In this document: positions 2,239 through 27,292 of the stretch, one piece after another
Layout: each line of letters starts with the position of its first letter
Position numbering within the stretch: position 1 is the stretch's first letter
Position numbers and translations under genes: made by a program
From: a phage
Assembly: GCA_011944185.1 (NCBI GenBank)
Contig: GCA_011944185.1_3921.2
DNA length: 27,455 nucleotides
Direction: 5' to 3' (one strand)
The notes under the pieces: model-generated
Databases searched by the model: none
Told to the model about the DNA's origin: nothing
Seen by the model: only the letters and a program-made list of their open reading frames with translations

Positions 2239-4216
2239 AGGTCGTAAATTGAAAGAGGCTGGTCAGTTTATTGGTCATTGTGCATGTCCACGTTGTGGTT
2301 CATCAGATGCTGGTTCAATCTATCATCATGACGATGATTCTTATTCGATGACTTGCTTTAGTTGTAACAAAGGTTTCCCAGAGTGGGATTTTGATAAAGG
2401 ACAAATCGTGAGCACTTATTCTACTGGTTCAGACAATAAAAACCGTACTTTCCGTGGAATGGATTTAGACGATGTAAAAGAAAACCTAGAAGCAATGGAC
2501 TTGAAAGACAGGAAGATTCCTGCAAAAGTCCTTGAACGCTTAGGTATCAAGGTTGACATTGACAGTGACGGTGAAATTGATGCGCACTTCTATCCAACTT
2601 ACAAACGTAATGAAGATGGTAAGCTAGAACATGTTGGCTACCGTGTTCGTCACCGTTACCCAGAAGACCATCCAAAAGAGCACCTACGTGGTAAGCTAAA
2701 AGACTTTTCTGGTGGTGTTGGAGACATTAAAGGTGAACTGGCAATGTTCGGCTCATGGATTGCTCCAGAAGGTGGTAACCGTCTATTCATCTGGGAAGGT
2801 GAGATGGAATGTGCGACAGCAATCTACATGACTTCTTTGGCGATTAAAGATAAGTCTCGTCGTAAGAATTACTGTCACGTATCTGTTCCGTCAGGTGCAA
2901 ACATTAAGTCTATCAAAGATAACTATCAGTACATTACATCATTTGATGAAATTTACTTGTGCTTTGATAACGATGAAGCAGGTGCTAAAGCTACCAAAGA
3001 GGCTGCTGGTATCCTACCTATTGAGAAGGTTCGTTTATTCCAGTATCCAGAAGGTGTAAAAGACCTTAACGAATGGTGGACAAAGTTCTATAAAGAGAAA
3101 GACACAGTTCTTGAAGGGTTTAAGCAGCGTATCTACAATGCGCCCCGTTACTGCCCTGCTGGTATCAAGAACTTCGCAGATGGTTTTGAGGCAATGAAGA
3201 ATCGTGGTCAGATTCCATTGATTCCTTTCCCAGAATCTTTCGGAGATTTGAACAGGCTGACTTATGGCGGTTATGGTTTAGGTGAGATTACAACTCTGGC
3301 AGCACCATCTTCAGTGGGTAAATCAGCATACACTCGTGAAATGATTTATACTGCTTGGAAAGATACCGATTACAATATTGGTGTAATTCCGGTCGAAGAT
3401 ACCTATGAAGAGTTGATGGAGATGCTCTGTGCAATCCACCTCAGCAAGCAGATTTCTGAGATTCCTTATGACGAACGTGATTGGGATGAATTGAAGGAAG
3501 CACATGCAGAGCTATCTAAAGGTCGTCGTATCCACATCGTAGACCATCAAGGTGCAATTGACCAAGATAACCTGCTGGAATTTGTTGACTATCTTGTTAA
3601 CAGTTTAGACTGTAAGATTATTATTCTTGACCCTATCACGTTAGCTCTGTCACGTTCAGATACGGATGAAGAGGAAGTTTTGTCTGAGCTATTGCGTCGT
3701 TGCAAACGCTACCAGTATGCGCAGGTAAACGTATGTCACGTTCGTAAGAGTGCAGGTGGTCAGAAAGCTAACTCTGAAGGTGGGGATATCTCTGAAGAGG
3801 ATATCAAGGGTTCTGGTGCGTATTTCCAGATTTCCATGAATAATATTTTGTTAATGCGTAACAAGGTTGACCCAGACCCTGTTAAGAAAAACTTGACAAA
3901 AATCAAGTTAACTAAATGTCGTCGTCACGGTAAGTCAACGGGTATTGCTGGTCATACTTGGTACAATCCAGATACAGGGCGTCTCATTAAAGCATCTGGT
4001 TGTGGAGTTGACATTGATGGTGCAGCAGAAAATATTCGCCAACAGTTTGGTATTGGCGAAGCTGAAGACCATTACGATGACTCTTTGCCACATTATGAGG
4101 ATGAAGTGTTTGACCGTGAGACTGGTGAAGTCTATACTGAAGAGCAGCGTCAAAGCTCAACGATTCCACCTGTATTAAGTGAGGATGCAGATGACTGCCC
4201 ATTCGAAACTGAGTGA
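2231..4216 (+). CDS. bifunctional DNA primase/helicase (T7 gp4-like)
   Basis: N-terminal Cys4 zinc ribbon (CPRCGSSDAG...CFSCNKGF); TOPRIM-like acidic core (EGEMECATAIY, CFDNDEAG); DnaB-type Walker A (AAPSSVGKSAYT) and Walker B (KIIILDPIT). The ORF track starts at a GTG at 2225; I prefer the ATG at 2231 preceded by GAGG. Confidence 0.85.
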   Translation: MSKGRKLKEAGQFIGHCACPRCGSSDAGSIYHHDDDSYSMTCFSCNKGFPEWDFDKGQIVSTYSTGSDNKNRTFRGMDLDDVKENLEAMDLKDRKIPAKVLERLGIKVDIDSDGEIDAHFYPTYKRNEDGKLEHVGYRVRHRYPEDHPKEHLRGKLKDFSGGVGDIKGELAMFGSWIAPEGGNRLFIWEGEMECATAIYMTSLAIKDKSRRKNYCHVSVPSGANIKSIKDNYQYITSFDEIYLCFDNDEAGAKATKEAAGILPIEKVRLFQYPEGVKDLNEWWTKFYKEKDTVLEGFKQRIYNAPRYCPAGIKNFADGFEAMKNRGQIPLIPFPESFGDLNRLTYGGYGLGEITTLAAPSSVGKSAYTREMIYTAWKDTDYNIGVIPVEDTYEELMEMLCAIHLSKQISEIPYDERDWDELKEAHAELSKGRRIHIVDHQGAIDQDNLLEFVDYLVNSLDCKIIILDPITLALSRSDTDEEEVLSELLRRCKRYQYAQVNVCHVRKSAGGQKANSEGGDISEEDIKGSGAYFQISMNNILLMRNKVDPDPVKKNLTKIKLTKCRRHGKSTGIAGHTWYNPDTGRLIKASGCGVDIDGAAENIRQQFGIGEAEDHYDDSLPHYEDEVFDRETGEVYTEEQRQSSTIPPVLSEDADDCPFETE

Positions 4217-4286
4217 TAGTTACAAAAGAGAGGGGTTCACACCCTTCTTTGAAGAAAAAAGTTTAAATGAATTTCAGGAAGAGTGT

Positions 4287-4315
4287 TTGACAAAGGTTGA
4301 TAGGTTCTATAGAAT
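4287..4315 (+). promoter_or_regulatory. sigma70-like promoter P1 (TTGACA-N17-TAGAAT)
   Basis: TTGACA at 4287-4292, 17-nt spacer, TAGAAT at 4310-4315. Shares the extended context GTTTGACAA with the copies at 4626 and 24275. Confidence 0.5.
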
Positions 4316-4468
4316 GCTCTACATGAAATGTGATGGAGGTGTTGAGGTAGAAGAAAAGTTCCATCACAGCATAATCACAGTCACTATTACTATACCTAAA
4401 CATAATATTGGTTGGCTGTTTGTAATAAAAGAAAATGTGTTTGAATATCAAGTATATCGGAGAATATC

Positions 4469-4618
4469 ATGAAACACTCTAAAGCATTTGAAAAAGTTTT
4501 TGGGGATTCCTTAAAAGCCACTGCTGGAAAACCAGCAAAATACTATGAAGAGAAGCGTGTAAGAACTGGAAAAACTGCACGTAAAGCAGCTTCTAAAGAT
4601 AAGCACAACTTCCAGTAA
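4469..4618 (+). CDS. candidate small lysine-rich protein (49 aa)
   Basis: ORF not in the supplied track (below 60 aa): MKHSKAFEKVFGDSLKATAGKPAKYYEEKRVRTGKTARKAASKDKHNFQ. GGAG lies 7 nt upstream of the ATG; sits between promoters P1 and P2. Confidence 0.3.
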   Translation: MKHSKAFEKVFGDSLKATAGKPAKYYEEKRVRTGKTARKAASKDKHNFQ

Positions 4619-4625
4619 TTAATGT

Positions 4626-4654
4626 TTGACAATAGAGTATCAACAAACTAGAAT
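4626..4654 (+). promoter_or_regulatory. sigma70-like promoter P2 (TTGACA-N17-TAGAAT)
   Basis: TTGACA at 4626-4631, 17-nt spacer, TAGAAT at 4649-4654; about 36 nt upstream of the ATG at 4691, which has an AGAGG RBS. Confidence 0.55.
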
Positions 4655-4690
4655 TGGTACTCTTCATAAATTGAGATAGAGGTTTAAATA

Positions 4691-5548
4691 ATGTCTAAAG
4701 TTGTTAAAATGAAAGCTCCGGTAGAGAAATACAATGGCACTGAACGCCAAACTCTGCGATACCTGCTGAAAGATGTCTGGTTTTATTACCTGAACACTTC
4801 ACCACGTCCGGGAAAAGGTAAGTCTATTGATAAGAAATTCCCAGGCAAAGACTGTAACTACAGCGTATCAATTCTGGCAGAAGACGGTAACAAACTGTTT
4901 AAAGAGTTTACTAAGTCTAAGAAAAATCCAGAAGGTTGGGATAAAGTCACTACTGAAGCAGTTGATGCAGACGACTTCGAAGAGAAGTTTGGTTGTAAAC
5001 CACCTTTTGAAGCAGACACTTACTACATCTTGAAAGTAAGTCGTGCAGCAGCTTATAAAGATGGTGCTGTATGGACAGCTAAACAGTCATTCCCTGTTAT
5101 GCTTATTGAAGAAGTAAATGGTAAGCGTGTAGCTGTTAAGCAGCCGATGAAGAAAATCAAAGCTCAAGCATCTGATAAACATGAAGATGATAAGAACTAT
5201 GATGTAATTCATCCAGATATTGCAGTTGGTAACGGTTCTTTTGGTAGTGTGATTCTTTCTACTCACTTCTACACTTTTGAGAACAATGTTCTGACAAAAC
5301 CTATTCAGGAACAGTTTATCATTGATACTCTTGTACCTTACACTGGTGGTAACGGTGCTAACGGTGAACCTGAACTGGATGAAGACGAACTGGCTATGCT
5401 TGGTCTTGATGGTGTCGAAGATAACGGTGAAATCACTGAAGAAGACGCAACAGACCATAAATCTTCGAATGAGTCTGATGATGGTGATGATGAAGATTTG
5501 CCAGACCCAGATGACGAAGAAGATGAAGACTTCGATACAGAAGACTAA
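4691..5548 (+). CDS. putative single-stranded DNA-binding protein (acidic C-terminal tail)
   Basis: 285-aa ORF directly behind promoter P2. The last ~45 residues are very acidic (DDGDDEDLPDPDDEEDEDFDTED), a hallmark of phage and bacterial SSBs (T7 gp2.5, T4 gp32, E. coli SSB). Sits between the primase-helicase and the exonuclease. No fold-level motif verified. Confidence 0.4.
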   Translation: MSKVVKMKAPVEKYNGTERQTLRYLLKDVWFYYLNTSPRPGKGKSIDKKFPGKDCNYSVSILAEDGNKLFKEFTKSKKNPEGWDKVTTEAVDADDFEEKFGCKPPFEADTYYILKVSRAAAYKDGAVWTAKQSFPVMLIEEVNGKRVAVKQPMKKIKAQASDKHEDDKNYDVIHPDIAVGNGSFGSVILSTHFYTFENNVLTKPIQEQFIIDTLVPYTGGNGANGEPELDEDELAMLGLDGVEDNGEITEEDATDHKSSNESDDGDDEDLPDPDDEEDEDFDTED

Positions 5549-5565
5549 TCTCTAAAAGTTACTTT

Positions 5566-5595
5566 AAAGCCCTGTACTTAGTATGGGGCTTTTTC
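5566..5595 (+). terminator. Rho-independent terminator
   Basis: AGCCCT / GGGGCT stem with 11-nt loop, followed by TTTT; directly after the stop at 5548. Confidence 0.5.
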
Positions 5596-5610
5596 ATATG
5601 GAGAGCCATA

Positions 5611-8817: not shown

Positions 8818-11052
8818 ATGATTAAGACAATTAAAAAATCAAACGGTACAGTAGTAAGCTTTGACCCAGAAAGACTGAATAAATGGGCATCATGGGCAGA
8901 TAAGCGTGGAATTATCTGGTCAGAAGTCACTATGGAAGCTATGAAACGTGTCTACGAAGGTTGCACCACAAAAGAGATGCACCAAGCCATGATTGATGTT
9001 TGTGTTGATAAACAAACTCAAGAGTACTCAGACATGGCTGGACGGCTACTTCTGGGGATTATCTACAAAGAAGCCTTTGGAGGCTTTACTAAGGTTCCTA
9101 CACTGATTACCTTCGTTAAAAATATGGAGAGAGCAGGACTTTGGGAGAAGATGGATTATTCACAGGAAGAGCTTGAATACCTGCAAGGTTACATCGTGCA
9201 CTCAAAAGATATCTCTTACGGTTATGCAGTCTTGAAACAGTTCAGAGACAAGTATGGCATCCGTGATATTAAAACGGGAAGACTTTTTGAGTCACCACAA
9301 TTTATGTTCATGGGTATGGCTATGAAAGCCTTTGAGAAGCAACCAAAGCACCGTAGACTGCAAGATGTTATCAAGCTGTACACTTACCTATCTGACCTGA
9401 AAATTAACGCTCCTACGCCTTATTTAAACGGTTTAAGAGCAACTAAATCAGGCTATGCGTCATGCTGTTTGATTAAGGCAAATGATACTGCTGAATCACT
9501 TGGTATTGCTGCAAAGGTTGCTTATGATATGACTACAAAGCAAGCTGGTATTGGTATGCTGATGGAGACTCGCACTATTGGTGATGGTATCCGTCAAAAT
9601 ACGATTGAGCACATGGGTAAGCTACCTTATTACAAGCTTGTACGTTCATCTGTAGAGGCAAATAAACAGAAGAGTCGTGGTGGTTCAGCTAATAACTTCT
9701 ACACTGCTCTAGACCCGCAGATTGAAGATTTACTGCGTTTGAAGCACCCTACAACGGTTCCTTCTAAACGTATTAATGAGATGGACTACTCATTCGGTAC
9801 AAACGATTATTTCTGGCAGTGTGTTCAGTATGATACAGATTGGTTGCTATTCTCTTACAAAGATGCACCAAAACTCTATGACATGTTCTACACAGCATCT
9901 GCTGATGAGTTTGCTATGGCAGTTGGTCACGCAGTACATTCAGGAGTTAAGCACAGACGAGTCAAGGCTCGTGAAATTGCTAAGCTGTTTATTCAACAGC
10001 GTTATGCTACAGGTCGTGTGTATCCATTCTTCACTAACAATGCAAACACACATACACCATTTAAAGAACCATTGAAGATGTCAAATCTTTGTATGGAAAT
10101 TGTATTGCCAGTGTATGGTTTTGAGAAAGAGACAGACCTTTACAGAGACGATGCTGTGAAAGAGGATGGTGAGGTTGCTCTTTGCTTCCTAACTAGTTTG
10201 GTTGCAGGGAGAATTTCAGAAGATGAATACGCTGACGTTGCTTATTATGCTCTTGCAATGGTTGACTCCGTTATTGACCTTATGGATTATCCGTATCCGT
10301 CGATGCGTAACCATGTTCAGAAGCGTCGTTCTGTTGGGATTGGCCTTACAAATGTGGCTCACTACCTTGCGAAGAACTACGTGAACTACTCTTCACGAGC
10401 AGGTAAAACGAAGCTTCATGAGCTTGCTGAAATGCACTCTTACTACTTACACGAAGCTTCTTTAAGACTTGCTAAAGAACGTGGTGTGCCTGAGTATATG
10501 CAGTTCACTAAGTATCCTGAAGGATGGGTTCCTCCAAAGACAGCTAACAGGAAGATTGATGAGAAGCATGATGCAAAGCTAAGATATGATTGGGATGACT
10601 TAGCACAACGTATCAAAGAGAACGGTGGAATCCGTAACTCTGTATTAGAGGCTTACATGCCTAATGAGAGTTCTTCTCTGGCGACTAATACAACTAACGG
10701 CTTGTACCCAATTCGTGACTTTATTTTAACTAAAAAGTCTGCAACTGGTAACGTACTGTTTATTGTTCCAGATTATGAAGAGTTGAAGTATGTATATGAA
10801 ATTGCTTGGGATATTGATACCTTTGACCTGATTGATTGTTATGCAATTGTTCAAAAGTTCACTGGTCAAGCTATCTCTTCAGACTTCTATGTTGACTATG
10901 CAAAGTCTAAGAAGGTATCATTGGCTCAAGCTCTGAAGTATATGATTTATGCCAACTCGGTAGGTATGAAAACCATGTACTACCTTAACAGTCGCATCGG
11001 TGTAGGTAAGTCTGCACTGCAAGATGCTTATTGCGAGGGCTGTGGTGTTTAG
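8818..11052 (+). CDS. nrdA: ribonucleoside-diphosphate reductase large subunit (class Ia)
   Basis: N-terminal ATP-cone-like segment (IKKSNGTVVSFDPERL); PTPYLNGLRATKSGYASCCLIKANDTAES (active-site Cys region); NLCMEIVLP (Cys-Glu catalytic motif); PNESSSLATNTTNGLYP; C-terminal Cys pair YCEGCGV. These align to my recollection of T4/E. coli NrdA; 744 aa. Confidence 0.9.
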   Translation: MIKTIKKSNGTVVSFDPERLNKWASWADKRGIIWSEVTMEAMKRVYEGCTTKEMHQAMIDVCVDKQTQEYSDMAGRLLLGIIYKEAFGGFTKVPTLITFVKNMERAGLWEKMDYSQEELEYLQGYIVHSKDISYGYAVLKQFRDKYGIRDIKTGRLFESPQFMFMGMAMKAFEKQPKHRRLQDVIKLYTYLSDLKINAPTPYLNGLRATKSGYASCCLIKANDTAESLGIAAKVAYDMTTKQAGIGMLMETRTIGDGIRQNTIEHMGKLPYYKLVRSSVEANKQKSRGGSANNFYTALDPQIEDLLRLKHPTTVPSKRINEMDYSFGTNDYFWQCVQYDTDWLLFSYKDAPKLYDMFYTASADEFAMAVGHAVHSGVKHRRVKAREIAKLFIQQRYATGRVYPFFTNNANTHTPFKEPLKMSNLCMEIVLPVYGFEKETDLYRDDAVKEDGEVALCFLTSLVAGRISEDEYADVAYYALAMVDSVIDLMDYPYPSMRNHVQKRRSVGIGLTNVAHYLAKNYVNYSSRAGKTKLHELAEMHSYYLHEASLRLAKERGVPEYMQFTKYPEGWVPPKTANRKIDEKHDAKLRYDWDDLAQRIKENGGIRNSVLEAYMPNESSSLATNTTNGLYPIRDFILTKKSATGNVLFIVPDYEELKYVYEIAWDIDTFDLIDCYAIVQKFTGQAISSDFYVDYAKSKKVSLAQALKYMIYANSVGMKTMYYLNSRIGVGKSALQDAYCEGCGV

Positions 11053-15069: not shown

Positions 15070-15079
15070 AACTTGACAT

Positions 15080-15120
15080 GGTGGTGTGAGTCTTGATAGG
15101 CTTACATCACCTTTTTTATT
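15080..15120 (+). terminator. Rho-independent terminator
   Basis: 11-bp stem GGTGGTGTGAG / CTTACATCACC (two G-U wobbles) with 10-nt loop, followed by TTTTTTATT; directly after the nrdD stop. A TTGACA hexamer sits just upstream at 15073-15078. Confidence 0.55.
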
Positions 15121-16988: not shown

Positions 16989-17300
16989 ATGAGCAAAATC
17001 TATAACACTCGTAAATTACAGATTGCAATCCTGTGCCAGTTTATGGCTGATAAGCACAACTCACACTATTGTGGTACAGGTTTCCTTATGCAAGGTCGTG
17101 GCTACATTAGCTTCAAAGAAGCTGTGAAGATGTACAATGAGCACCCTGAAGATGACAAAGAGTTGAAACAACTGAAGCTTACTTATGACAAGAAGCGTAA
17201 GAAAATTGTATGCTTGAACAACCTTATCAAGCAAACTGAAAACGTTTATGATGCAATTGGTGAAGAGGGTTTCTTAAAAGTCTTGAAAATAGCTCAGTAA
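16989..17300 (+). CDS. hypothetical protein
   Basis: 103-aa ORF followed by a perfect terminator. No motif recognised. Confidence 0.45.
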   Translation: MSKIYNTRKLQIAILCQFMADKHNSHYCGTGFLMQGRGYISFKEAVKMYNEHPEDDKELKQLKLTYDKKRKKIVCLNNLIKQTENVYDAIGEEGFLKVLKIAQ

Positions 17301-17312
17301 ATGTATATGATT

Positions 17313-17341
17313 AGGGAACTGTAAAGGTTCCCTTTTTATTT
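17313..17341 (+). terminator. Rho-independent terminator
   Basis: Perfect AGGGAAC / GTTCCCT stem with 7-nt loop, followed by TTTTTATTTT. Confidence 0.65.
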
Positions 17342-17351
17342 TGGAGATAAT

Positions 17352-17867
17352 ATGTATCTGTCAAATCTGAAACGTTCTGCTGCAATGTCAGTGTTAAGAC
17401 TCAGTTTTGAGGAACGTCAAGAGTTCATTGACTCCCACCAATACGACCCTTCCAACTCCAATCACATGATTCTCTGGAATCGTGAGAGTACTCGTGAAAG
17501 AGCATTATTTCGATATTACCCACACTACACCATAGACAACCTGTATGAATGTTTTGTTGTGAAGAACACCATTACAGTACTCAATAAACTTTGCAGATAC
17601 ACAGGCAGTCAATCCTTCACATTAGGCCACCACAATCCTGTTACAAAAGGTGGTGAACATCACTGTGCAAACTGGTTTATTCAGACTAAAGCTGATAACC
17701 AGAAGCAAGGAGATAGTCTTTTAAGTACCCCTAAGATGACCTATGAAGAGCAAGAGAGATATATCAAAAATAATATGCCAGATGTGCTTGACAACAACTA
17801 TACAGATTTGGCAATATCTCTCCTGTTGAAGTTCGAGATAGTTTATAGGGCAACTTACAATGGCTAA
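17352..17867 (+). CDS. putative HNH (His-Me finger) endonuclease
   Basis: LCRYTGSQSFTLGHHNPVTKGGEHHCANWFIQTKADNQKQGD fits the HNH pattern C..C...HH.P...GG...N...N.K; GGAG RBS. Confidence 0.5.
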   Translation: MYLSNLKRSAAMSVLRLSFEERQEFIDSHQYDPSNSNHMILWNRESTRERALFRYYPHYTIDNLYECFVVKNTITVLNKLCRYTGSQSFTLGHHNPVTKGGEHHCANWFIQTKADNQKQGDSLLSTPKMTYEEQERYIKNNMPDVLDNNYTDLAISLLLKFEIVYRATYNG

Positions 17868-19545: not shown

Positions 19546-21327
19546 ATGAGTAAGTCACTTTACGCAGTACCAGCAGGTCTTAATGCAGATGCTTACAAGG
19601 CATCACATATATATCAGTATCCAGATGCTACGCAATATCTTATGTTAAACCTGACACCACGTAGTGATAAATGGTTTAACAGCCCTTTAGCAATTGACGG
19701 TGTAGTGGCTTTTGGTATTCAACGTTTTGTTAAAGATTACTTGATAGACCACTGGAACGCCACCTTCTTTGAACGTGACAAAAAAGAAGCAATTGACGAA
19801 ATCTTAGAAGTCATGAACGGTGTTCTGGGTAAAGATGCTATCGGTAGAGAACATTGGGAAGCACTTCACGACTTAGGCTATCTACCAGTTGAAGTATACG
19901 CTGTAGAAGAAGGCACAGTTGTTCCTATGCGTGTACCAATGATTGTCTTCCAGAACACTGTTTCAGGTTTCCATTGGGTAGCTGGGTATCTGGAAGATGC
20001 TTTCTCTGCTGAGATTTGGAAGGCTTGTACCATTGCAACTATTGCATTGCACTACAAACGTATCTGTAAGAAGTGGTCTGACCTTACTTGTGACAACGAC
20101 TTGCATTTGCCTTATCAGTGCCATGACTTTGCTATGCGTGGTATGTCCGGCTTTACTGATGACGCATTTAACGCTGTAGGCCACTTAACCAGCTTTAAAG
20201 GAACTGATAGCTTCCCTGCTGTATATACAGCTAAACGCATCTATGGACAGTCCTACCCAATCTCTGATATTGGTAGCTCTGTACCAGCCACTGAACACTC
20301 TGTGATGTGTGCAAACATTGCTTGGGAAGGTGGTAATGAGTTGGTTGAAGAAGAAAGACGCTTTAAAGGTGAGTTGCAAACCTTCCGTCGCTTCTTAACA
20401 GAAACTTATCCAACTGGTATTGCAAGTGTTGTTTCAGACACTTATAACTTCTGGAGAACTGTGTCAGAAATCTTACCAGCACTCCGTAAAGAAATTATGG
20501 AACGTGATGGCAAACTGGTAATTCGTCCTGACTCTGGAGACCCTGTACACATTGTCACAGGTTATAAAGCAATCCACTTAGAGTGTGCTAAAAAGGCTTA
20601 TTATGAGCACCTAAGCAATCTGGAAGCCAGTGACACAATGCTGAATGCTGTTCTGAACATGAAGCTTGAAAACATCAGCTATGGTATTGCTGGATGGCTA
20701 CTGTCAGAAGGCTACGAAATGGTTGTTGACAGAGAAGACTTTGAAGTTGCTGATACAGTGATGTTGAAGAACGCTTATATGGTTGGTTCTGCAAACGTTG
20801 TAACACGCCCTGTAGCAGAGATTGATGGAGCTATTAAGACCTTGTATAACATCTTTGGAGGAACTATTAACTCTAAAGGTTTTAAGGTACTGGATGAGCA
20901 CATTGGCCTTATCTATGGCGACTCTATCACGTTGGAACGTGCAAACGAAATCCTGAAGCGTCTGTATGAAATGGGGTTTGCAAGCTCTAACGTGGTGTTT
21001 GGTGTAGGCTCTTACACTTACCAGTACATGACTCGTGACACCTTTGCATTTGCTGTCAAAGCAACTCTTGCAAGCATTGGTGGCAAAGAGATTATGCTTG
21101 CAAAAGACCCTAAAACAGATAGTGGTGTTAAGAAATCTGCCTTTGGTGGTGTAGCACCTATGTGGGATGGTGAGAATTTGAAAGCTGTAGATGGCTATGG
21201 ATTCCAGAGCTTTGCAGATGCACTTGAACATCCAGCTTGTGCTTTACGTTTAGTCTTTAGCGACTCTGAGCAGTACGGTTACACAACTCTTGGTGATATT
21301 CGAAATAATATTGACAATCAGCTTTAA
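19546..21327 (+). CDS. nicotinamide phosphoribosyltransferase (Nampt/NadV)-family protein; possibly nicotinamide ADPR-transferase-like
   Basis: N-terminal LNADAYKASHIYQYPD fits the (D)xYKxxH signature of the Nampt/NAPRTase family; 593 aa; AGAGAGAG RBS; followed by a terminator. Catalytic residues not individually verified. Confidence 0.7.
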   Translation: MSKSLYAVPAGLNADAYKASHIYQYPDATQYLMLNLTPRSDKWFNSPLAIDGVVAFGIQRFVKDYLIDHWNATFFERDKKEAIDEILEVMNGVLGKDAIGREHWEALHDLGYLPVEVYAVEEGTVVPMRVPMIVFQNTVSGFHWVAGYLEDAFSAEIWKACTIATIALHYKRICKKWSDLTCDNDLHLPYQCHDFAMRGMSGFTDDAFNAVGHLTSFKGTDSFPAVYTAKRIYGQSYPISDIGSSVPATEHSVMCANIAWEGGNELVEEERRFKGELQTFRRFLTETYPTGIASVVSDTYNFWRTVSEILPALRKEIMERDGKLVIRPDSGDPVHIVTGYKAIHLECAKKAYYEHLSNLEASDTMLNAVLNMKLENISYGIAGWLLSEGYEMVVDREDFEVADTVMLKNAYMVGSANVVTRPVAEIDGAIKTLYNIFGGTINSKGFKVLDEHIGLIYGDSITLERANEILKRLYEMGFASSNVVFGVGSYTYQYMTRDTFAFAVKATLASIGGKEIMLAKDPKTDSGVKKSAFGGVAPMWDGENLKAVDGYGFQSFADALEHPACALRLVFSDSEQYGYTTLGDIRNNIDNQL

Positions 21328-21341
21328 AAGTATATGATAAG

Positions 21342-21364
21342 AGGCTCCTACGGGAGCCTTTTTA
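21342..21364 (+). terminator. Rho-independent terminator (TACG loop)
   Basis: Perfect AGGCTCC-TACG-GGAGCCT hairpin followed by TTTT. Confidence 0.65.
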
Positions 21365-21380: not shown

Positions 21381-21716
21381 ATGAAAATCAAAGAGATGAA
21401 CATCAACATTGTCTTAGAAGAACGTTGGGAGAATATTAAGAAACCTGAAGATGGTAAAAAGTTCCTTAACAAAATTTTAGTAGCAGCTAAAGAAGAACTG
21501 ACTGGCAAGATTGCAGCAGCAGTCACAATAAAAGTTTGTGTAAAAGGTCTTCCAGACAACCACCAATTTGCGCTTGACGAGTTTAAAAAAAGCTTCTACA
21601 ATCCAAACAAACAGATGCTTGAAAGTAACTTTGCAGTATCTACAAGTATCGTCCATGACAGAAGCTTTATCCTTTACAAAAATATGAGAGGTGAGTCATG
21701 CAAGCATATTGGATAG
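21381..21716 (+). CDS. hypothetical protein
   Basis: 111-aa ORF; GGAGAAG RBS. No motif recognised. Confidence 0.5.
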   Translation: MKIKEMNINIVLEERWENIKKPEDGKKFLNKILVAAKEELTGKIAAAVTIKVCVKGLPDNHQFALDEFKKSFYNPNKQMLESNFAVSTSIVHDRSFILYKNMRGESCKHIG

Positions 21717-21902: not shown

Positions 21903-24269
21903 ATGCGCATGGTAAATGACCACGCAGAAGTGATTAAGAGTTCAACTTCTTTAGAGACGTCTCAAGCACAGATTACAATGACACCTGAGATGTTCAGCCT
22001 TTTGAGTTCTGGTGTGTATACCTTTAAAGAAAGGGCAGTGATTCGTGAACTGTCATGTAACGCAGTAGATGCTCAGAAAGAAGCTGGAAAAGAGAACATT
22101 CCATTCCATGTGCATTTACCTACTCGTTTTGAGCCTTACTTCGAAGTTCGTGATTTTGGAACTGGATTGACTCATGATAAAGTTATGAGTTTGTACCTAA
22201 ACTATGGAGCTTCTACGAAGAATGACTCTAATGACTACATTGGTGCAATGGGTATCGGCTCAAAGTCACCATTTGCAATTGCTCAGTCATTCACAGTATC
22301 TAGCTATGTTGACGGTGTTGTTAATAAGTACTCTGTTTATCTTGAGAATGGTATCCCTCAAGTAACTAAGCTGACAACTAACCCAACAAAAGAACCTAAT
22401 GGTTTAGCTGTACGTGTGGCAGTTGCTGACCACCGTATCTCAAAGTTCTTTGAAGAAGCTGGGAATGTGTACTCATACTTCACTGTAAAACCAGAAAGTA
22501 ATATTGAGTACGACGATATATTAGCAGATATGAACGTCATTGCCCGTGAAGAAGGTGTTTATGATGCCATGATTCATAAGCAAAGCTGGCGTTCTGGCGC
22601 TAACAGAACAGAGTTTAATGTGGTGATGGGTAACATTGCCTACCCTGTTAACATGGAAGCATTACTTGGAGATGATTTCTTCAAAGTATTGCCAGAATTT
22701 TTCCGTAGGAGCGTAGACCTTGTAAACATCTACATGCCTATTGGTTCAGTTGCTATTGCAGCTTCTCGTGAAGCATTGCAGATGAATGACACGACAAAAA
22801 ATGTTATCATTGAGGCTACTAAAAAGATAACTGAAGCCATTACAAAGGATGTTATCAAGAAAGTTAATAGCCAACCTACACTCATGGATGCTGCACAGGC
22901 TTATGCTGAGTTACGTTTGAACTCACGAGAGATGTTTAATGCTGTGTGTCCAAAGCTAGAGTGGGGAGGCGTTAAGCTTGATTCTCTGGAAGAAGAATTA
23001 CTAAACATTCGTCGTGGGATTATCTACGCAGAAGACGGCTCAGTCATTTATGAACGTGACGGTAAAGGTAATATTAAGGTTGATAGGAACGGAAACAACA
23101 TCCCTAAAGTAGATTTTCTTTATGACCCAGTTGCTTATGTCAAGTTCAACTCTTTAGAGAGTAAGATTCGTGCAACAGCACTTTCCTACACTCAAGAGGC
23201 AAGTATGTTCAATATCTTTGGTGCAATGCGTAAAAGCCAAATTGAACAGTTTTTGTTCGTGATTAATGACCGTCGCAATAAAAATGGTACTGAGAAGACT
23301 GTAGGACGAAATCAAATCTTGCGTGGTGCATGTCGAGACTACGCTAACGAGTCAGGCCTGTTCCACAGATACAATGGCATTGTGTTTGTATTCTCGACTG
23401 AAAAAGAGTTAGACGACCTAATCAACCTACACAAACTTGATAAAAGCTTGTTAAAGATTGTGAAGATGTCTGATAAGGAACATCACTATCAGCGTAAAGA
23501 AGCTGTAAGAGGTGTTGTAAAACTCTGGAAAGCTGTTCCAGCAGAAGGTGTAGCTTCCTATAAAGAGGTTTCAGAGGACTTTGATACAATTGAAGAACCT
23601 CAGCTTTACATTAAGGCAGTTGGTGACACAGTTGATGGTAGATGTTTTTGCTCATCTCCAGAAGATGTAGCTAAGTCAGTTGCTAATGTTACAGGTAAGA
23701 CAGTCTATGTTTTCCGAAAAGCAAATTGGAAAAAGATACCAGAAGACTGGATTGAAGTAGATGAGCAACTCTTGAACGATAGCTTAACTGATGTTCACTG
23801 GATTAATCATAACAGGTATATGACACGCATCTACATGAATGGTGTTCTTGACCTTACAAGCAGTTGGATTATTGCCAGAAACTTTACATTCAATAACAGG
23901 AAGATTTCTCGTGGCTATTGCTATTCACGAGATACTAGCAAAACTATCTTCCTAGAAGGTAATGAAGAGGCTGTAGAGGCTATGTTCGGTAAAATCCAAT
24001 ACGTTGCTGCACCATTTGCATACACTTATACTATTAGTAGATTGCAAACTTTGAAAGAATGCCTTGACAATGACACAAAACTGTACAAAAAGATTAAAAA
24101 AGCAGGTGACCGCATGGTTATCAAGCTGACAAACTATCTTTCAAAAAGAAAACAAGAAAACTTCTTGCTTTCACACTTAGATTGGAATAAAGTATCACCT
24201 ATCGAAGTGAGTAAGTTTTTAGGCTTTAATGTGAAATGTGTTCCAGAAGGTACAACAATTTACGATTAA
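21903..24269 (+). CDS. rIIA: rIIA-like protein (GHKL/HATPase_c-type ATPase domain at N-terminus)
   Basis: GHKL motifs: IRELSCNAVDA (N box), VRDFGTGL (DxGxG), IGAMGIGSKSPFAIA (G box). Segments FSLLSSGVYTFKERAVIRELSCNAVDAQ, NDYIGAMGIGSKSPF and PIGSVAIAASREALQMNDTTKNVI match my recollection of T4 rIIA; 788 aa. Confidence 0.75.
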   Translation: MRMVNDHAEVIKSSTSLETSQAQITMTPEMFSLLSSGVYTFKERAVIRELSCNAVDAQKEAGKENIPFHVHLPTRFEPYFEVRDFGTGLTHDKVMSLYLNYGASTKNDSNDYIGAMGIGSKSPFAIAQSFTVSSYVDGVVNKYSVYLENGIPQVTKLTTNPTKEPNGLAVRVAVADHRISKFFEEAGNVYSYFTVKPESNIEYDDILADMNVIAREEGVYDAMIHKQSWRSGANRTEFNVVMGNIAYPVNMEALLGDDFFKVLPEFFRRSVDLVNIYMPIGSVAIAASREALQMNDTTKNVIIEATKKITEAITKDVIKKVNSQPTLMDAAQAYAELRLNSREMFNAVCPKLEWGGVKLDSLEEELLNIRRGIIYAEDGSVIYERDGKGNIKVDRNGNNIPKVDFLYDPVAYVKFNSLESKIRATALSYTQEASMFNIFGAMRKSQIEQFLFVINDRRNKNGTEKTVGRNQILRGACRDYANESGLFHRYNGIVFVFSTEKELDDLINLHKLDKSLLKIVKMSDKEHHYQRKEAVRGVVKLWKAVPAEGVASYKEVSEDFDTIEEPQLYIKAVGDTVDGRCFCSSPEDVAKSVANVTGKTVYVFRKANWKKIPEDWIEVDEQLLNDSLTDVHWINHNRYMTRIYMNGVLDLTSSWIIARNFTFNNRKISRGYCYSRDTSKTIFLEGNEEAVEAMFGKIQYVAAPFAYTYTISRLQTLKECLDNDTKLYKKIKKAGDRMVIKLTNYLSKRKQENFLLSHLDWNKVSPIEVSKFLGFNVKCVPEGTTIYD

Positions 24270-24274
24270 AGTGT

Positions 24275-24304
24275 TTGACAAGGGGCTTTGAAGCCCCTTA
24301 GAAT
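24275..24304 (+). promoter_or_regulatory. sigma70-like promoter P3 (TTGACA-N18-TAGAAT) with a perfect hairpin in the spacer
   Basis: TTGACA at 24275-24280 and TAGAAT at 24299-24304; the whole 18-nt spacer is the palindrome AGGGGCT-TTGA-AGCCCCT (24281-24298). Same GTTTGACAA context as P1 and P2. Lies between rIIA and rIIB. Confidence 0.5.
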
Positions 24305-24348: not shown

Positions 24349-25458
24349 ATGACTACTAAAACTAAAGCACAGATTGACGCAGAAATTTACAAACTGGTTA
24401 AAGAAGGTAAGCTGACCAAAACAGCTATTGCACAGAAATTTAACACTTCAACCCGTTCAGTTGGTCGTGCTGTAGAGCGTCATGAAGCAACCCTAAAAGG
24501 GAATAAAAAGGCAACTTCTGCACCAGCTACGAAGACTTTGAAACAAGTTGCTAAGACTTTTAAAAAGAAAGCTGGCAAACCAGTTGAAAAGGTCGTTAAA
24601 GAGACTGTACAGAAAGCTCCAGTAAATAAACTGCACGAAGCTATGCAGAAAGATGACAAAATTGAGTACATGATTACTGGTGACTCTGTAATTATGACTT
24701 ATGGTTCAGAATCTGAAATTGTTGAGTCTACTCATCCAAACTATCAAGAGATTGTAGTTCATGTTGTGAAAGGTGAGTTCAAGAAAGCATTTGAACTGAT
24801 GAACATCCGTAAGTCTATCGAAAACTTCACTCAGGGTGCTATTACAATCAAAGGTGACAAGCTATTCTACGGTGCTGTTGAGATGCGTTCTACTCTGGTT
24901 GACCGTATTCTCCACATGATGAAGACTGGTGATAAAGGTTTTGAACGACTTGTAATGTTCTTCGAAAAACTGATGGAAAACCCATCTAAAGATTCTGTAG
25001 AACAACTTTGGGGATTTGTATCTCACCTTGATGTTGAAATTGATGAAGAAGGCTACATCATTGGTTGGAAGAAAGTCTCTACTCGTGAAGGCAAGCTGGT
25101 TGACTCTCACACCTACAAAGTGCCTAATGATTTGGGTAACATTGTAGAAATGCCACGTTGGATGGTTGATAATAACCGTAACGTAACTTGCTCTCAAGGT
25201 CTTCATGTTGGTGCTTGGGATTATGTTCGTTGCTTCTCAGGTGATACAATCCTGAAGGTTCGCGTACATCCACGAGATGTTGTATCTGTTCCAACTGATT
25301 ACAACGATATGAAGATGCGTTCCTCTCGTTATGAAGTTGCAGCAATCGTTGATAATCAACGTAAAGTGCTGGAAGCATGGGACGGTAAGACTGAAGCTTT
25401 GCATGTCATCGTTGGCACTGCTGGTGAACTCATCTCTCAACGTAAACGTGAAATCTAA
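24349..25458 (+). CDS. rIIB: rIIB-like protein
   Basis: Segments ITIKGDKLFYGAVEMRSTLVDRILHMM, FFEKLMENPSKDSVEQLW and VRVHPRDVVSVPTDYNDMKMRSSRYEV match my recollection of T4 rIIB (VRIEGGSLFYQNIELRSGLVDRILDSM; VKVHPRDVVSIPIDYNDAKMRTCQYEV); immediately downstream of rIIA; AGAGAGAG RBS. Confidence 0.75.
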   Translation: MTTKTKAQIDAEIYKLVKEGKLTKTAIAQKFNTSTRSVGRAVERHEATLKGNKKATSAPATKTLKQVAKTFKKKAGKPVEKVVKETVQKAPVNKLHEAMQKDDKIEYMITGDSVIMTYGSESEIVESTHPNYQEIVVHVVKGEFKKAFELMNIRKSIENFTQGAITIKGDKLFYGAVEMRSTLVDRILHMMKTGDKGFERLVMFFEKLMENPSKDSVEQLWGFVSHLDVEIDEEGYIIGWKKVSTREGKLVDSHTYKVPNDLGNIVEMPRWMVDNNRNVTCSQGLHVGAWDYVRCFSGDTILKVRVHPRDVVSVPTDYNDMKMRSSRYEVAAIVDNQRKVLEAWDGKTEALHVIVGTAGELISQRKREI

Positions 25459-25558: not shown

Positions 25559-26107
25559 ATGAAGAAATTGATTCTAGGCTTGTGCTTAATGTTTACAGCA
25601 CACTTATCTTATGCAGTTGACTGCCCAGAGCTATCAATTAGCCAAAAAGTAAACATGTTAAAAGCTTACCAGTATGGTGAGAATAATATGGGGAAAGGCT
25701 GGGGTATTACTCTAGCAGCTATAGCCTTACAAGAGTCAGAGTTAGGTCTGAAGGTAGAGAATAAAAAGACCCACGACTATGGTATTTTCCAGAATCACTT
25801 GAAGACTGTTGTAAAGCGTAACAAAATTAGTCCTAATGTGGCTAAAAAGAAACTCTTAAAAGATTTTGACTATGCAGCAAAAGAGACGCATAAAGAGCTT
25901 GAGTTTTGGACTAAGGTACATGGTCACCCGAAGTCAAAGAAGACTTTACAAAAAGTTTTAGCATCGTATAATGCTGGGTATTCGTACAAAATCCCTAAAG
26001 CTAAGAAATACTCTCAAGATGTCTATAACAATATGAAAGTTATTGCTCAATGTGAATTTGCAACAAACATTTCTAAGGTAAATCATGAAAAAATTAAGAA
26101 AGTCTGA
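25559..26107 (+). CDS. secreted lysozyme-like / lytic transglycosylase (SLT)-domain protein
   Basis: N-terminal signal-peptide-like segment MKKLILGLCLMFTAHLSYA; LQESELG...HDYGIFQ resembles the catalytic Glu and G(L/I)xQ region of the lysozyme-like fold; later ASYNAGYSY resembles the AYNAG motif of SLT domains. AGGAGAA RBS. Confidence 0.5.
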   Translation: MKKLILGLCLMFTAHLSYAVDCPELSISQKVNMLKAYQYGENNMGKGWGITLAAIALQESELGLKVENKKTHDYGIFQNHLKTVVKRNKISPNVAKKKLLKDFDYAAKETHKELEFWTKVHGHPKSKKTLQKVLASYNAGYSYKIPKAKKYSQDVYNNMKVIAQCEFATNISKVNHEKIKKV

Positions 26108-26791: not shown

Positions 26792-27256
26792 ATGAACAAT
26801 ATCATTACGGTAGCACTGGACGATACGGCAAACAAATCTGAAGTAGTTCGTAAAATGATTCAAGGTAACTTTGAAGGTAAAATTTTTCGTGCTGTTAATG
26901 TAAAAGCTGATGGCAGTATTCGTGAATACCGTGCATTGTTGAATGTTAAAAAGCACGTAAAAGGTGCTGGTTCAACGACTGCACACAAAGAAAACCTGAT
27001 GACTATCTATGATATGGGTAAGGCTTCAGAGTTAGGTGCTGAAGGTATCGTTAAAGAAGGTGCTCCGTATCGCTCTTTCAATCTGGAAACTACTCTTATG
27101 CTTTCCTTTACAAGTGGTTCTAAAACAATCACTTATCTCTTTACTGATGCTGCAACGGTATCTGCTATTAAGGATAGCACTGTCAAAGCTGGCGTAGTTG
27201 CTGCTGCAAAAGCTTCTTCGATGGCTGCAAATATCCTTGCAAAAGTCCTCGGTTAA
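26792..27256 (+). CDS. hypothetical protein
   Basis: The ORF track starts at a TTG at 26777; first ATG at 26792 after GAGAG. Ala/Lys-rich C-terminus; followed by a terminator. Confidence 0.45.
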   Translation: MNNIITVALDDTANKSEVVRKMIQGNFEGKIFRAVNVKADGSIREYRALLNVKKHVKGAGSTTAHKENLMTIYDMGKASELGAEGIVKEGAPYRSFNLETTLMLSFTSGSKTITYLFTDAATVSAIKDSTVKAGVVAAAKASSMAANILAKVLG

Positions 27257-27267
27257 GGTTAAGATAC

Positions 27268-27292
27268 AGGCTCCTTCGGGAGCCTTTTTATT
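27268..27292 (+). terminator. Rho-independent terminator (TTCG tetraloop)
   Basis: AGGCTCC-TTCG-GGAGCCT hairpin followed by TTTTTATTTT. Confidence 0.65.

Follow-up and report, generated by a model that had tools for sequence, protein, structure and literature searches.

The two intergenic copies of a TTGACA-N17/18-TAGAAT motif in a 27,455-nucleotide stretch of phage DNA (GCA_011944185.1_3921.2; hereafter the window) are probably strong promoters that the host sigma70 RNA polymerase can use with no co-factor. They belong to a genome-wide family of TTGACA promoters that share an upstream extension resembling an UP element. A sequence-only reading of the window had singled out three such sites, here called sites 1, 2 and 3, for the bases that they have in common beyond the hexamers, and had proposed a phage-specific promoter class, possibly recognized by sigma70 together with a phage co-factor. 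The observation is correct, but the sites are ordinary host-type promoter sequences, partly annotated already, and the idea of a new class with a co-factor is not supported. What the analysis suggests to be new is the family-wide upstream extension and an architecture, seen across Ounavirinae, in which promoters and hairpins are phased with each other.

Over the region 3800-5600 the window shares ~98% identity with the Escherichia phages JLBYU32 and wV8, with 259 Felix O1-like records matched, and by sequence it is assigned to Felixounavirus (Ounavirinae), a virulent myovirus with a genome of ~88 kb. In wV8 coordinates it starts at ~66.4 kb, runs through to where the record ends and continues over the first 5.3 kb. 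The complete wV8 genome (88.5 kb) served as the close-relative reference for whole-genome scans. For the comparison of relatives, 28 regions upstream of gp111 and 30 rIIA-rIIB junctions were taken from IMG/VR, and Erwinia and Pectobacterium phages, including phiEa104 and Arno18, were added from GenBank.

Three sigma70-type motifs and the family to which they belong

All three sites lie exactly where the sequence-only reading had placed them (Table 1). Each has an exact TTGACA as its -35 hexamer, and the -10 hexamer TAGAAT matches five of the six positions of TATAAT at spacings of 17, 17 and 18 nt, giving a core that agrees with the sigma70 consensus at 11/12 positions. Dinucleotide-preserving shuffles of the window give an expectation of 0.03 for the pattern TTGACA-N16-19-TAGAAT, and none of 100 shuffles reached the three occurrences that the window has. 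The 10-mer TGTTTGACAA likewise has exactly three occurrences in the window, at sites 1, 2 and 3. A scan of the complete wV8 genome, of the kind that the reading had suggested, found the strict pattern at the same three positions and at no others. The extended -10 element TGn (-15 to -13) known from T4 was absent from all three sites in a promoter scan.

Sites 2 and 3 are intergenic, co-directional with the genes and leave room for a leader and a ribosome-binding site (RBS), gp111 starting 65 nt from site 2 and rIIB 74 nt from site 3; site 1 lies inside gp109. The placement of site 3 in the rIIA-rIIB gap, in the direction of the genes, was thus correctly described. At site 2 transcription is predicted to start at ~4659-4662, 30 nt before the gp111 ATG (4691), with GAGG at 4679-4682 as the RBS. 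The predicted start of site 3 (~24311) precedes the rIIB ATG (24349) by 38 nt.

Comparison with relatives distinguishes the hexamers of site 2 from the bases around them. The -35 was unchanged in 29/29 relatives, and the variable columns numbered 0/6 in the -35, 2/6 in the -10, 10/17 in the spacer and 9/12 in the upstream flank. The spacer stays at 17 nt while its 3' half is rewritten in the Suspvirus/Mooglevirus clade, and the -10 ranges over TAnnAT only (TAGAAT, TAAGAT, TAATAT and TAACAT). At the orthologous position the Erwinia phage phiEa104 has ttttaaaaaagttg-TTGCAA-N17-TAAGAT and the Pectobacterium phage Arno18 has TTGACA-N17-TAACAT, in the latter case ahead of a protein that is just 45% identical. 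This pattern, in which the hexamers and their spacing are kept and the spacer bases and the middle of the -10 are free, spans Felixounavirus, Suspvirus, Mooglevirus, Kolesnikvirus and Arno18. Conservation at site 2 is therefore selective for the hexamers, and at site 1 the same comparison is confounded by coding. Site 3 takes the form TTGAC(A/T)-N17/18-TA(G/A)AAT across Felixounavirus, Suspvirus and Mooglevirus, and T-12, A-11, T-7 and the spacer length are kept in all relatives compared. With an 11/12 core, optimal spacing and hexamers conserved across genera, recognition of sites 2 and 3 by host sigma70 is very probable.

The bases that were thought to define a class are less constant. TAGAAT is exact at all three sites of the window and is replaced in relatives (by TAAGAT, TAATAT or TAACAT at site 2, by TAAAAT at site 3 and by TAAAGT at site 1), and a separate TAGAAT sub-class was ruled out because the G at the third position of the -10 is not conserved. 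Nor is the flank fixed: TATTTGACAA stands at site 2 in wV8 and in many further relatives, AGTATTTGACAA at site 3 in some relatives, and GTGCTTGACT at site 1 in the Suspvirus/Mooglevirus clade. With flank and -10 both varying in close relatives, a phage-specific class of the form GTTTGACAA...TAGAAT does not hold. An origin of sites 1 and 2 by duplication was also ruled out, their flanks and spacers being unrelated.

The claim that bases beyond the hexamers are informative, by contrast, is borne out. The motif A(A/G)AGT-NN-TT(G/T)AC(A/C/T) occurs 16 times in wV8 against 1.55 +/- 1.35 expected, and 12 times against 0.08 expected when TAnnnT is required at 16-18 nt. Among intergenic TTGACA sites of wV8, 18/19 are co-directional with the neighbouring genes, and most are preceded by an A-tract, as in ttttAAAAAAGTG-TTGACA. 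A profile of 21 wV8 sites has 56% A at -55 to -50 and 52% T at -49 to -46 (backgrounds 32% and 29%), then 71% A at -44 to -40 (AAAAA; background 32%), followed by g-t-T, TTGACA and a. The order A-tract, T-tract, A-tract is the layout of the UP element of E. coli promoters, and the profile has both the A/T tracts at -40 to -60 and the proximal A-tract. UP elements are A/T-rich, lie at -40 to -60 and are touched by the alpha subunits through their C-terminal domains (PMC2988021; Hinton, 2010). The flank shared by sites 1-3 is the proximal edge of this genome-wide, UP-element-like extension (A-tract, g-t, TTGACA), which, judged by its layout, probably contacts the alpha C-terminal domains. Sites 1-3 are the members with the best -10 in a continuum of ~20 TTGACA promoters with a range of TAnnnT -10 hexamers, and no class apart.

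Related elements were seen elsewhere in these genomes. The annotated direct repeats in the early region of wV8 (8547, 8926, 9996, 10792 and 12063) read as promoters of the form ataAAGTacTTTACA-N17-TAnnnT, as do those at 10785 and 13183 in phiEa104; the five-copy repeat of wV8 itself reads TTTACA-N17-TAnnnT. In these repeat promoters a GGGGCTTA/TAAGCCCC hairpin holds the -10 in its loop, with TAAAG..CTTTA palindromes flanking the -10, and phiEa104 retains the hairpin by compensatory changes (GGTGTTTA/TAAGCACC). The upstream half of site 3 (TAAAGTGTTTGACAAGGGGCTT) is identical at 19/22 positions to the core of the five-copy repeat (TAAAGTACTTTACAAGGGGCTT). Both divergent intergenic regions of wV8 (23802-23830 and 66281-66310, the latter ~190 nt upstream of the window's first gene) carry a 'double -35', TTGACAa(a/t)gtacTTGACAaggtg, after an A-tract. 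These elements presumably serve as the main divergent promoters of the early phase; a single one of the two, P41, was recorded in the Felix O1 paper (PMC3185647).

Hairpins phased with promoters

Sites 2 and 3 each overlap a sequence that can fold into a hairpin, and in both cases the arms interlock with the promoter elements. The site-2 hairpin has a 10-bp stem, one arm of which lies in the spacer and the other over the predicted start, and its loop (4644-4653) contains TAGAA of the -10 (free energy of folding, dG, -9.8; z -2.2). In Suspvirus and Mooglevirus the stem reads GGAGTA/TACTCC, with a compensatory change of A-T to G-C (this pair was taken from the sequences directly; the MAFFT alignment misplaced a 1-nt indel). 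Unrelated stems occupy the same position in phiEa104 and Arno18 (z -1.4 and -4.2), and over three independent lineages the Fisher combined P is 0.0016. The site-3 hairpin, at the 3' end of rIIA, takes in the final base of the -35, the whole spacer and the initial base of the -10. Relatives keep the stem with a loop of TTGA, TCAA, GCAA or GAAA, and other stems are found at the same junction in the relative L062 (AAGTGGTC/GGCCACTT) and in Kolesnikvirus (GGGCTG/CAGCCC). No intergenic words of wV8 are more enriched than the arms GGGGCTT/AAGCCCC. No hairpin overlaps site 1 (z +0.3), unlike sites 2 and 3. A search of Rfam gave no family at its gathering score in the window; the only match, an S15 leader near site 2 at 17 bits against a threshold of 39.5, is a sub-threshold chance match.

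A similar juxtaposition is found at hairpins that are followed by a U-tract, those beginning at 15080, 17313, 21339 and 27268. Promoters of the window end 0-2 nt ahead of the stems at 17313, 21339 and 27268, and the nrdD hairpin at 15080 holds a -10-like TAGGCT (15097-15102, N18). The module at 21311 is conserved in relatives. In the module at 17283, TTGAAA (including the choice of Leu codon) and the 17-nt spacing are invariant among relatives and the -10 is TATGAT or TACTAT, while the stretch that separates the stop codon from the -10 is rewritten. Genome-wide, a promoter match of at least 10/12 ends 0-4 nt before the stem at 3/23 hairpins of wV8 (null 0.6%, P = 3e-4), and a match of at least 8/12 stands at that place at 6/25 hairpins of phiEa104 (null 4.9%, P = 0.001). 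This overlap test took random genome positions as its null and is blind to local AT-richness, for which the offset profile is the local control. Over 41 terminators from two genera, the profile has a single sharp peak of 13 matches, with the end of the -10 at -6 to +5 counted from the stem's start, and 0-3 matches in nearly all other 6-nt bins from -90 to +113.

A mechanism can be proposed from this arrangement. Region 4 of sigma would read TTGACA and region 2 TAnnAT at optimal spacing, and the A-rich tract and G-T before the -35 would offer the alpha subunits an UP-element-like contact. Site 2 would restart transcription for gp111 and the recombination and nucleotide-metabolism genes that follow it, and site 3 for rIIB. 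RNA arriving from upstream would carry the complete hairpin and would pause, terminate in part or acquire a stable 3' end, whereas RNA born at the promoter would start inside or after the hairpin, lack the 5' arm and proceed unhindered. The -10 may be enclosed by the loop, stand in the spacer that separates the arms or abut the 5' arm, so that the start falls in the stem; at the abutting terminators a start ~7 nt past the -10 would make transcripts begin 4-7 nt into the 5' arm, with most of the stem missing. Sites 2 and 3 would be leaky versions, without a U-tract, of this terminate-and-restart design. That their hairpins work as such a part is a possibility that falls just short of an even judgement. 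The broader proposal, that Ounavirinae systematically nest promoters in terminator-type hairpins and so insulate and restart each unit through one 50-60-nt element, is put forward tentatively.

Several observations weigh against the proposed mechanism. The A-tract at sites 1-3 is weaker than in the best members of the family (site 3: ttaAAGtgt). In the distant phage phiEa104 the strict motif AAAGT-NN-TTGAC is not significantly enriched genome-wide (3 against 1.4 expected), which leaves the AAAGT extension conserved there only in part. The site-2 hairpin has a long loop and is individually marginal (z -1.4 to -2.2 in 3/4 lineages). True termination at the site-2 and site-3 hairpins is doubtful because both lack a U-tract, site 3 being followed by CCCCTTAGAAT and site 2 by TACTCTTCATAAA. 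The terminator-overlap statistics involve small numbers, with terminators and starts that are predicted and not mapped. In Felix O1, a crude end-point reverse transcription PCR (RT-PCR) assigns the homologue of gp111 to 25 min, a middle and not an early time (PMC3185647). Searches of the literature found no transcription start site (TSS), RNA sequencing (RNA-seq) or in vitro transcription data for Felix O1-like phages, and for that reason every functional statement made here is an inference.

Table 1. Positions of the promoter-like sites, hairpins and genes discussed, in window coordinates
Feature	Position	Strand	Description
Site 1	4287-4315	+	TTGACA 4287-4292, N17, TAGAAT 4310-4315; inside gp109 coding sequence; putative start ~4321-4323
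Site 2	4626-4654	+	TTGACA 4626-4631, N17, TAGAAT 4649-4654; between gp110 and gp111
Site 3	24275-24304	+	TTGACA 24275-24280, N18, TAGAAT 24299-24304; in rIIA-rIIB gap
Site-2 hairpin	4634-4663	+	5' arm AGAGTATCAA 4634-4643 in spacer; 3' arm TTGGTACTCT 4654-4663 over predicted start
Site-3 hairpin	24280-24299	+	AAGGGGCT-TTGA-AGCCCCTT; G+C; dG about -13 to -14
Fourth promoter-like site	4110-4138	+	gaaGTGT-TTGACC-N17-TATACT; last 106 nt of primase/helicase gene
gp109	4191-4472	+	small, fast-evolving; phrog_4982; contains site 1
gp110	4469-4618	+	49 aa; phrog_4424
gp111	4691-5548	+	285 aa; beta-rich; acidic tail ...DDEEDEDFDTED; predicted to be served by site 2
rIIA	21903-24269	+	phrog_612
rIIB	24349-25458	+	phrog_609; predicted to be served by site 3
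Promoter + terminator	21311-21362	+	TTGACA-N16-TATGAT 21311-21338, flush with hairpin 21339-21362; predicted start in 5' arm
Promoter + terminator	17283-17333	+	aaaagtc-TTGAAA-N17-TATGAT 17283-17311; hairpin 17313-17333
Promoter + terminator, weaker match	27237-27285	+	TTGCAA-N17-TAAGAT 27237-27265; hairpin 27268-27285
Promoter + nrdD terminator	15073-15111	+	TTGACA 15073-15078, one base before hairpin 15080-15111

Site 1, gp111 and neighbouring features

The sequence-only reading described two promoters stacked upstream of a putative gene for a single-stranded DNA-binding protein (SSB). Of this description site 2 stands. Site 1 is not intergenic but lies within the coding sequence of gp109, and its conservation is explicable by that coding alone. 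The view that it is a coincidence of the gp109 reading frame (ECLTK...FYRML), so that there is no stacking and only site 2 drives gp111, is one towards which the evidence leans slightly. gp109 is a real, conserved open reading frame, intact in every clade despite the fast divergence of the protein, and the -35 falls over the invariant codons TGT-TTG-ACA, part of the conserved peptide ECLTK. The diverged clade has TGC-TTG-ACT or TGC-TTG-ACG through synonymous substitutions that modify flank and hexamer alike, and its -10 has turned into TAAAGT along with the change in the protein. By our estimate, a genome of such size and composition should contain one to a few 11/12 matches by chance, and further intragenic matches of 10-11/12 are present in the window; the lack of an overlapping hairpin and the absence of a promoter annotation at site 1 in KR014248 point the same way. 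Against coincidence, site 1 is co-directional with the genes and has the AGAGT-GT extension of the family, TTG is retained as its Leu codon, and all clades preserve TTGAC together with TA...T at 17 nt. A second promoter-like site of the same context also lies just upstream, at 4110. Promoter function of site 1 is thus possible but somewhat doubtful; if active, it would serve gp110 and gp111.

The site at 4110, missing from the sequence-only reading, is 177 nt upstream of site 1 and has the same GTGT-TTGAC context. It is kept as TTGACC-N17-TA(T/C)ACT in all clades, yet the sequence is coding. It corresponds to the predicted Felix O1 promoter P102, TTGACC(N17)TATACT (PMC3185647). Two further 11/12 matches to the sigma70 consensus were seen in the window, TTTACA-N16-TATAAT inside a coding sequence (25945-25972, +) and TTGACA-N16-CATAAT antisense to the genes (8632-8605, -). 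The gp109 stop and gp110 start overlap as ATGA (4469-4472), which suggests translational coupling.

The name SSB for gp111 is a putative one. No family or structure match was obtained in Pfam, NCBIfam or PDB with single-sequence and profile searches, and the PHROGs family of gp111 has no assigned function. AlphaFold, given 11 homologues, yielded a model whose mean predicted local distance difference test score (pLDDT) was 45, too low for a confident structure. The protein is conserved, and its gene is situated between a primase/helicase gene and an exonuclease gene. An SSB-like role, hinted at solely by the long acidic tail and the gene position, is plausible but unproven.

For rIIB, a promoter of its own at site 3 would fit the expression of the Felix O1 genes, where end-point RT-PCR gave separate peaks at 10 min for rIIB and 25 min for rIIA (PMC3185647). 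In phiEa104 (2503-3631) rIIB is annotated as two coding sequences (a 'fragment' and a second part), and this split could be a frameshift or a sequencing error. At the rIIA-rIIB junction of phiEa104, as seen in the related vEam_PM_21, the hairpin is kept but a TTGACA promoter is not obvious.

Terminator hairpins are also reused as families. AGGCTCC-TTCG/TACG-GGAGCCT recurs in Felixounavirus (window 27268-27285 and 21342-21359; wV8 20703 and 5293), and GGACTC-TTCG-GAGTCC has at least 10 occurrences in phiEa104. In some relatives (L078, L083, L084 and L090) another gene is inserted upstream of the gene at 21381, and the promoter and terminator module is absent. Two alternative genes precede the gene at 17352 (L093-L113), and both end in the same promoter-plus-terminator module. 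Two records under other names, GU169904 (Staphylococcus phage SA1) and MG065668 (Campylobacter phage A126), contain Felix O1-like DNA that is 96-98% identical to the window; they are probably contaminated or mislabelled.

Alternative explanations and relation to known systems

If the sites were chance sigma70-like matches in an AT-rich genome, none of them would be functional. Matches of at least 9/12 in the window are indeed only a little above shuffles (39 against 34.8; 54 against 35.7). Such an explanation is nevertheless scarcely credible, given the excess of the strict pattern, the two sites that are intergenic, co-directional and at a proper distance from an RBS, and hexamers that are selectively kept over protein distances of 45% identity. 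A phage-specific class, whose extra bases or dyads would be read by a phage co-factor acting with host sigma70 in the manner of T4 Alt or of MotA and AsiA, draws on the real information outside the hexamers, on the dyad symmetries that overlap sites 2 and 3, and on the 'middle' score of the gp111 homologue. Injected Alt of T4 stimulates some early promoters with extra consensus ~2-fold (PMC2988021), and the timing of transcription in Felix O1 was stated as not known (PMC3185647). An 11/12 core at optimal spacing requires no activator, however, and the extension resembles an UP element. The bases that would define the class differ among close relatives, and the dyads are unrelated in sequence between promoters, leaving no common operator. 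In addition, purified DNA of Felix O1 and VpaE1 gives rise to infectious phage in an E. coli cell-free transcription-translation (TXTL) extract (10.1101/2023.12.07.570578, a preprint), and the Felix O1 authors found no polymerase-modifying proteins (PMC3185647). The co-factor of the sequence-only reading is thus improbable, and nothing in the data calls for a modulating factor of the Alt type.

The hairpins of sites 2 and 3 might instead be DNA operators, bound by a repressor that shuts the promoters off later, and not RNA structures. Inverted repeats over the spacer, the -10 and the start are in the classic operator position, the half-sites at site 3 are about one helical turn apart from centre to centre, and gene 91 of wV8 is a putative transcriptional regulator. 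However, the stems differ between promoters and between genera while their pairing is preserved by compensatory and wobble changes, and G-T wobbles keep RNA pairing but not DNA dyad symmetry. The loops include tetraloops of the GNRA and UNCG types that are typical of RNA hairpins, and GGGGCT/AGCCCC arms are also found in ordinary terminators with U-tracts elsewhere. A role as operators is accordingly regarded as unlikely. Like intrinsic terminators, the hairpins of sites 2 and 3 stand at the 3' ends of genes, have G+C stems and share the GGGGCT/AGCCCC arms, with stable tetraloops at site 3. Unlike them, the place of the U-tract is taken by the -10 or the start region, and the hairpins would at best be weak terminators or act in pausing or transcript stability.

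T4 offers a well-described comparison. Its early promoters are 'über' UP/-35/TGn/-10 promoters with extra consensus regions (PMC2988021). As in T4, the promoters described here belong to a virulent myovirus without a polymerase of its own, would use host sigma70 directly, and have near-consensus hexamers and UP-like sequence at -40 to -60. They likewise have a family-specific extra consensus and occur in many copies through the prereplicative genes. A variant of the T4 early -35 is close to TTTACA, as in the five-copy repeat promoters of wV8. In contrast to T4 early promoters, the three sites lack TGn and have the canonical TTGACA as their -35, and the literature searched does not describe T4 early promoters that interlock with hairpins. 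We know of no modification of Felix O1-like phage DNA, unlike that of T4. Homologues of Alt, Mod, AsiA and MotA are not known either (PMC3185647), no search for Alt having been made here.

The rIIB gene of T4 is served by the MotA-dependent promoters PrIIB1 and PrIIB2 (PMC2988021). T4 middle promoters, dependent on MotA and AsiA, have a MotA box at -30, where the present sites have a perfect TTGACA -35, and sites 1-3 do not belong to that class. The A1, A2 and A3 promoters of T7, PL and PR of lambda and the early promoters of T5 have TTGAC(A/T), a 17-bp spacer and TAnnnT with one or two departures from TATAAT, and are used by unmodified host polymerase immediately on infection. These classical strong coliphage promoters have been mapped experimentally, whereas the sites reported here are predicted and lie at internal junctions, not clustered at a genome end. 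T7 PA1 and lambda PL have been grouped with the T4 early promoters (PMC2988021).

In GenBank record KR014248 (vB_EcoM_AYO145A), sites 2 and 3 already carry the annotation 'promoter, similar to TTGACA(N15-18)TATAAT with 1bp mismatch', and as predicted promoters they are therefore not new. Five other promoters were predicted in Felix O1, none of which is site 1, 2 or 3, and the same paper described promoters downstream of terminators and temporal control as not known (PMC3185647). These in-silico annotations, together with that of UAB_Phi87 (PMC4837284), are pattern matches only, and the extension, the conservation across genera and the overlap with hairpins go unmentioned in them. The literature search yielded no promoter, TSS or RNA-seq study of any Felixounavirus and nothing relevant on overlaps of phage promoters with terminators; the wV8 genome paper is silent on promoters.

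Felix O1 is a classic Salmonella typing and biocontrol phage and is now rebuilt and engineered in cell-free systems. A family consensus (A-tract, g-t, TTGACA, N17, TAnnnT) and a set of restart points would ease both such engineering and the interpretation of transcriptomes. Site 2 would offer a conserved point of restart for the recombination and replication genes and site 3 one for rIIB, and a large part of the phage programme could run on unmodified host polymerase. If the promoter-in-hairpin layout holds true, termination and re-initiation would be packed into one element, which may provide a reusable part for synthetic biology.

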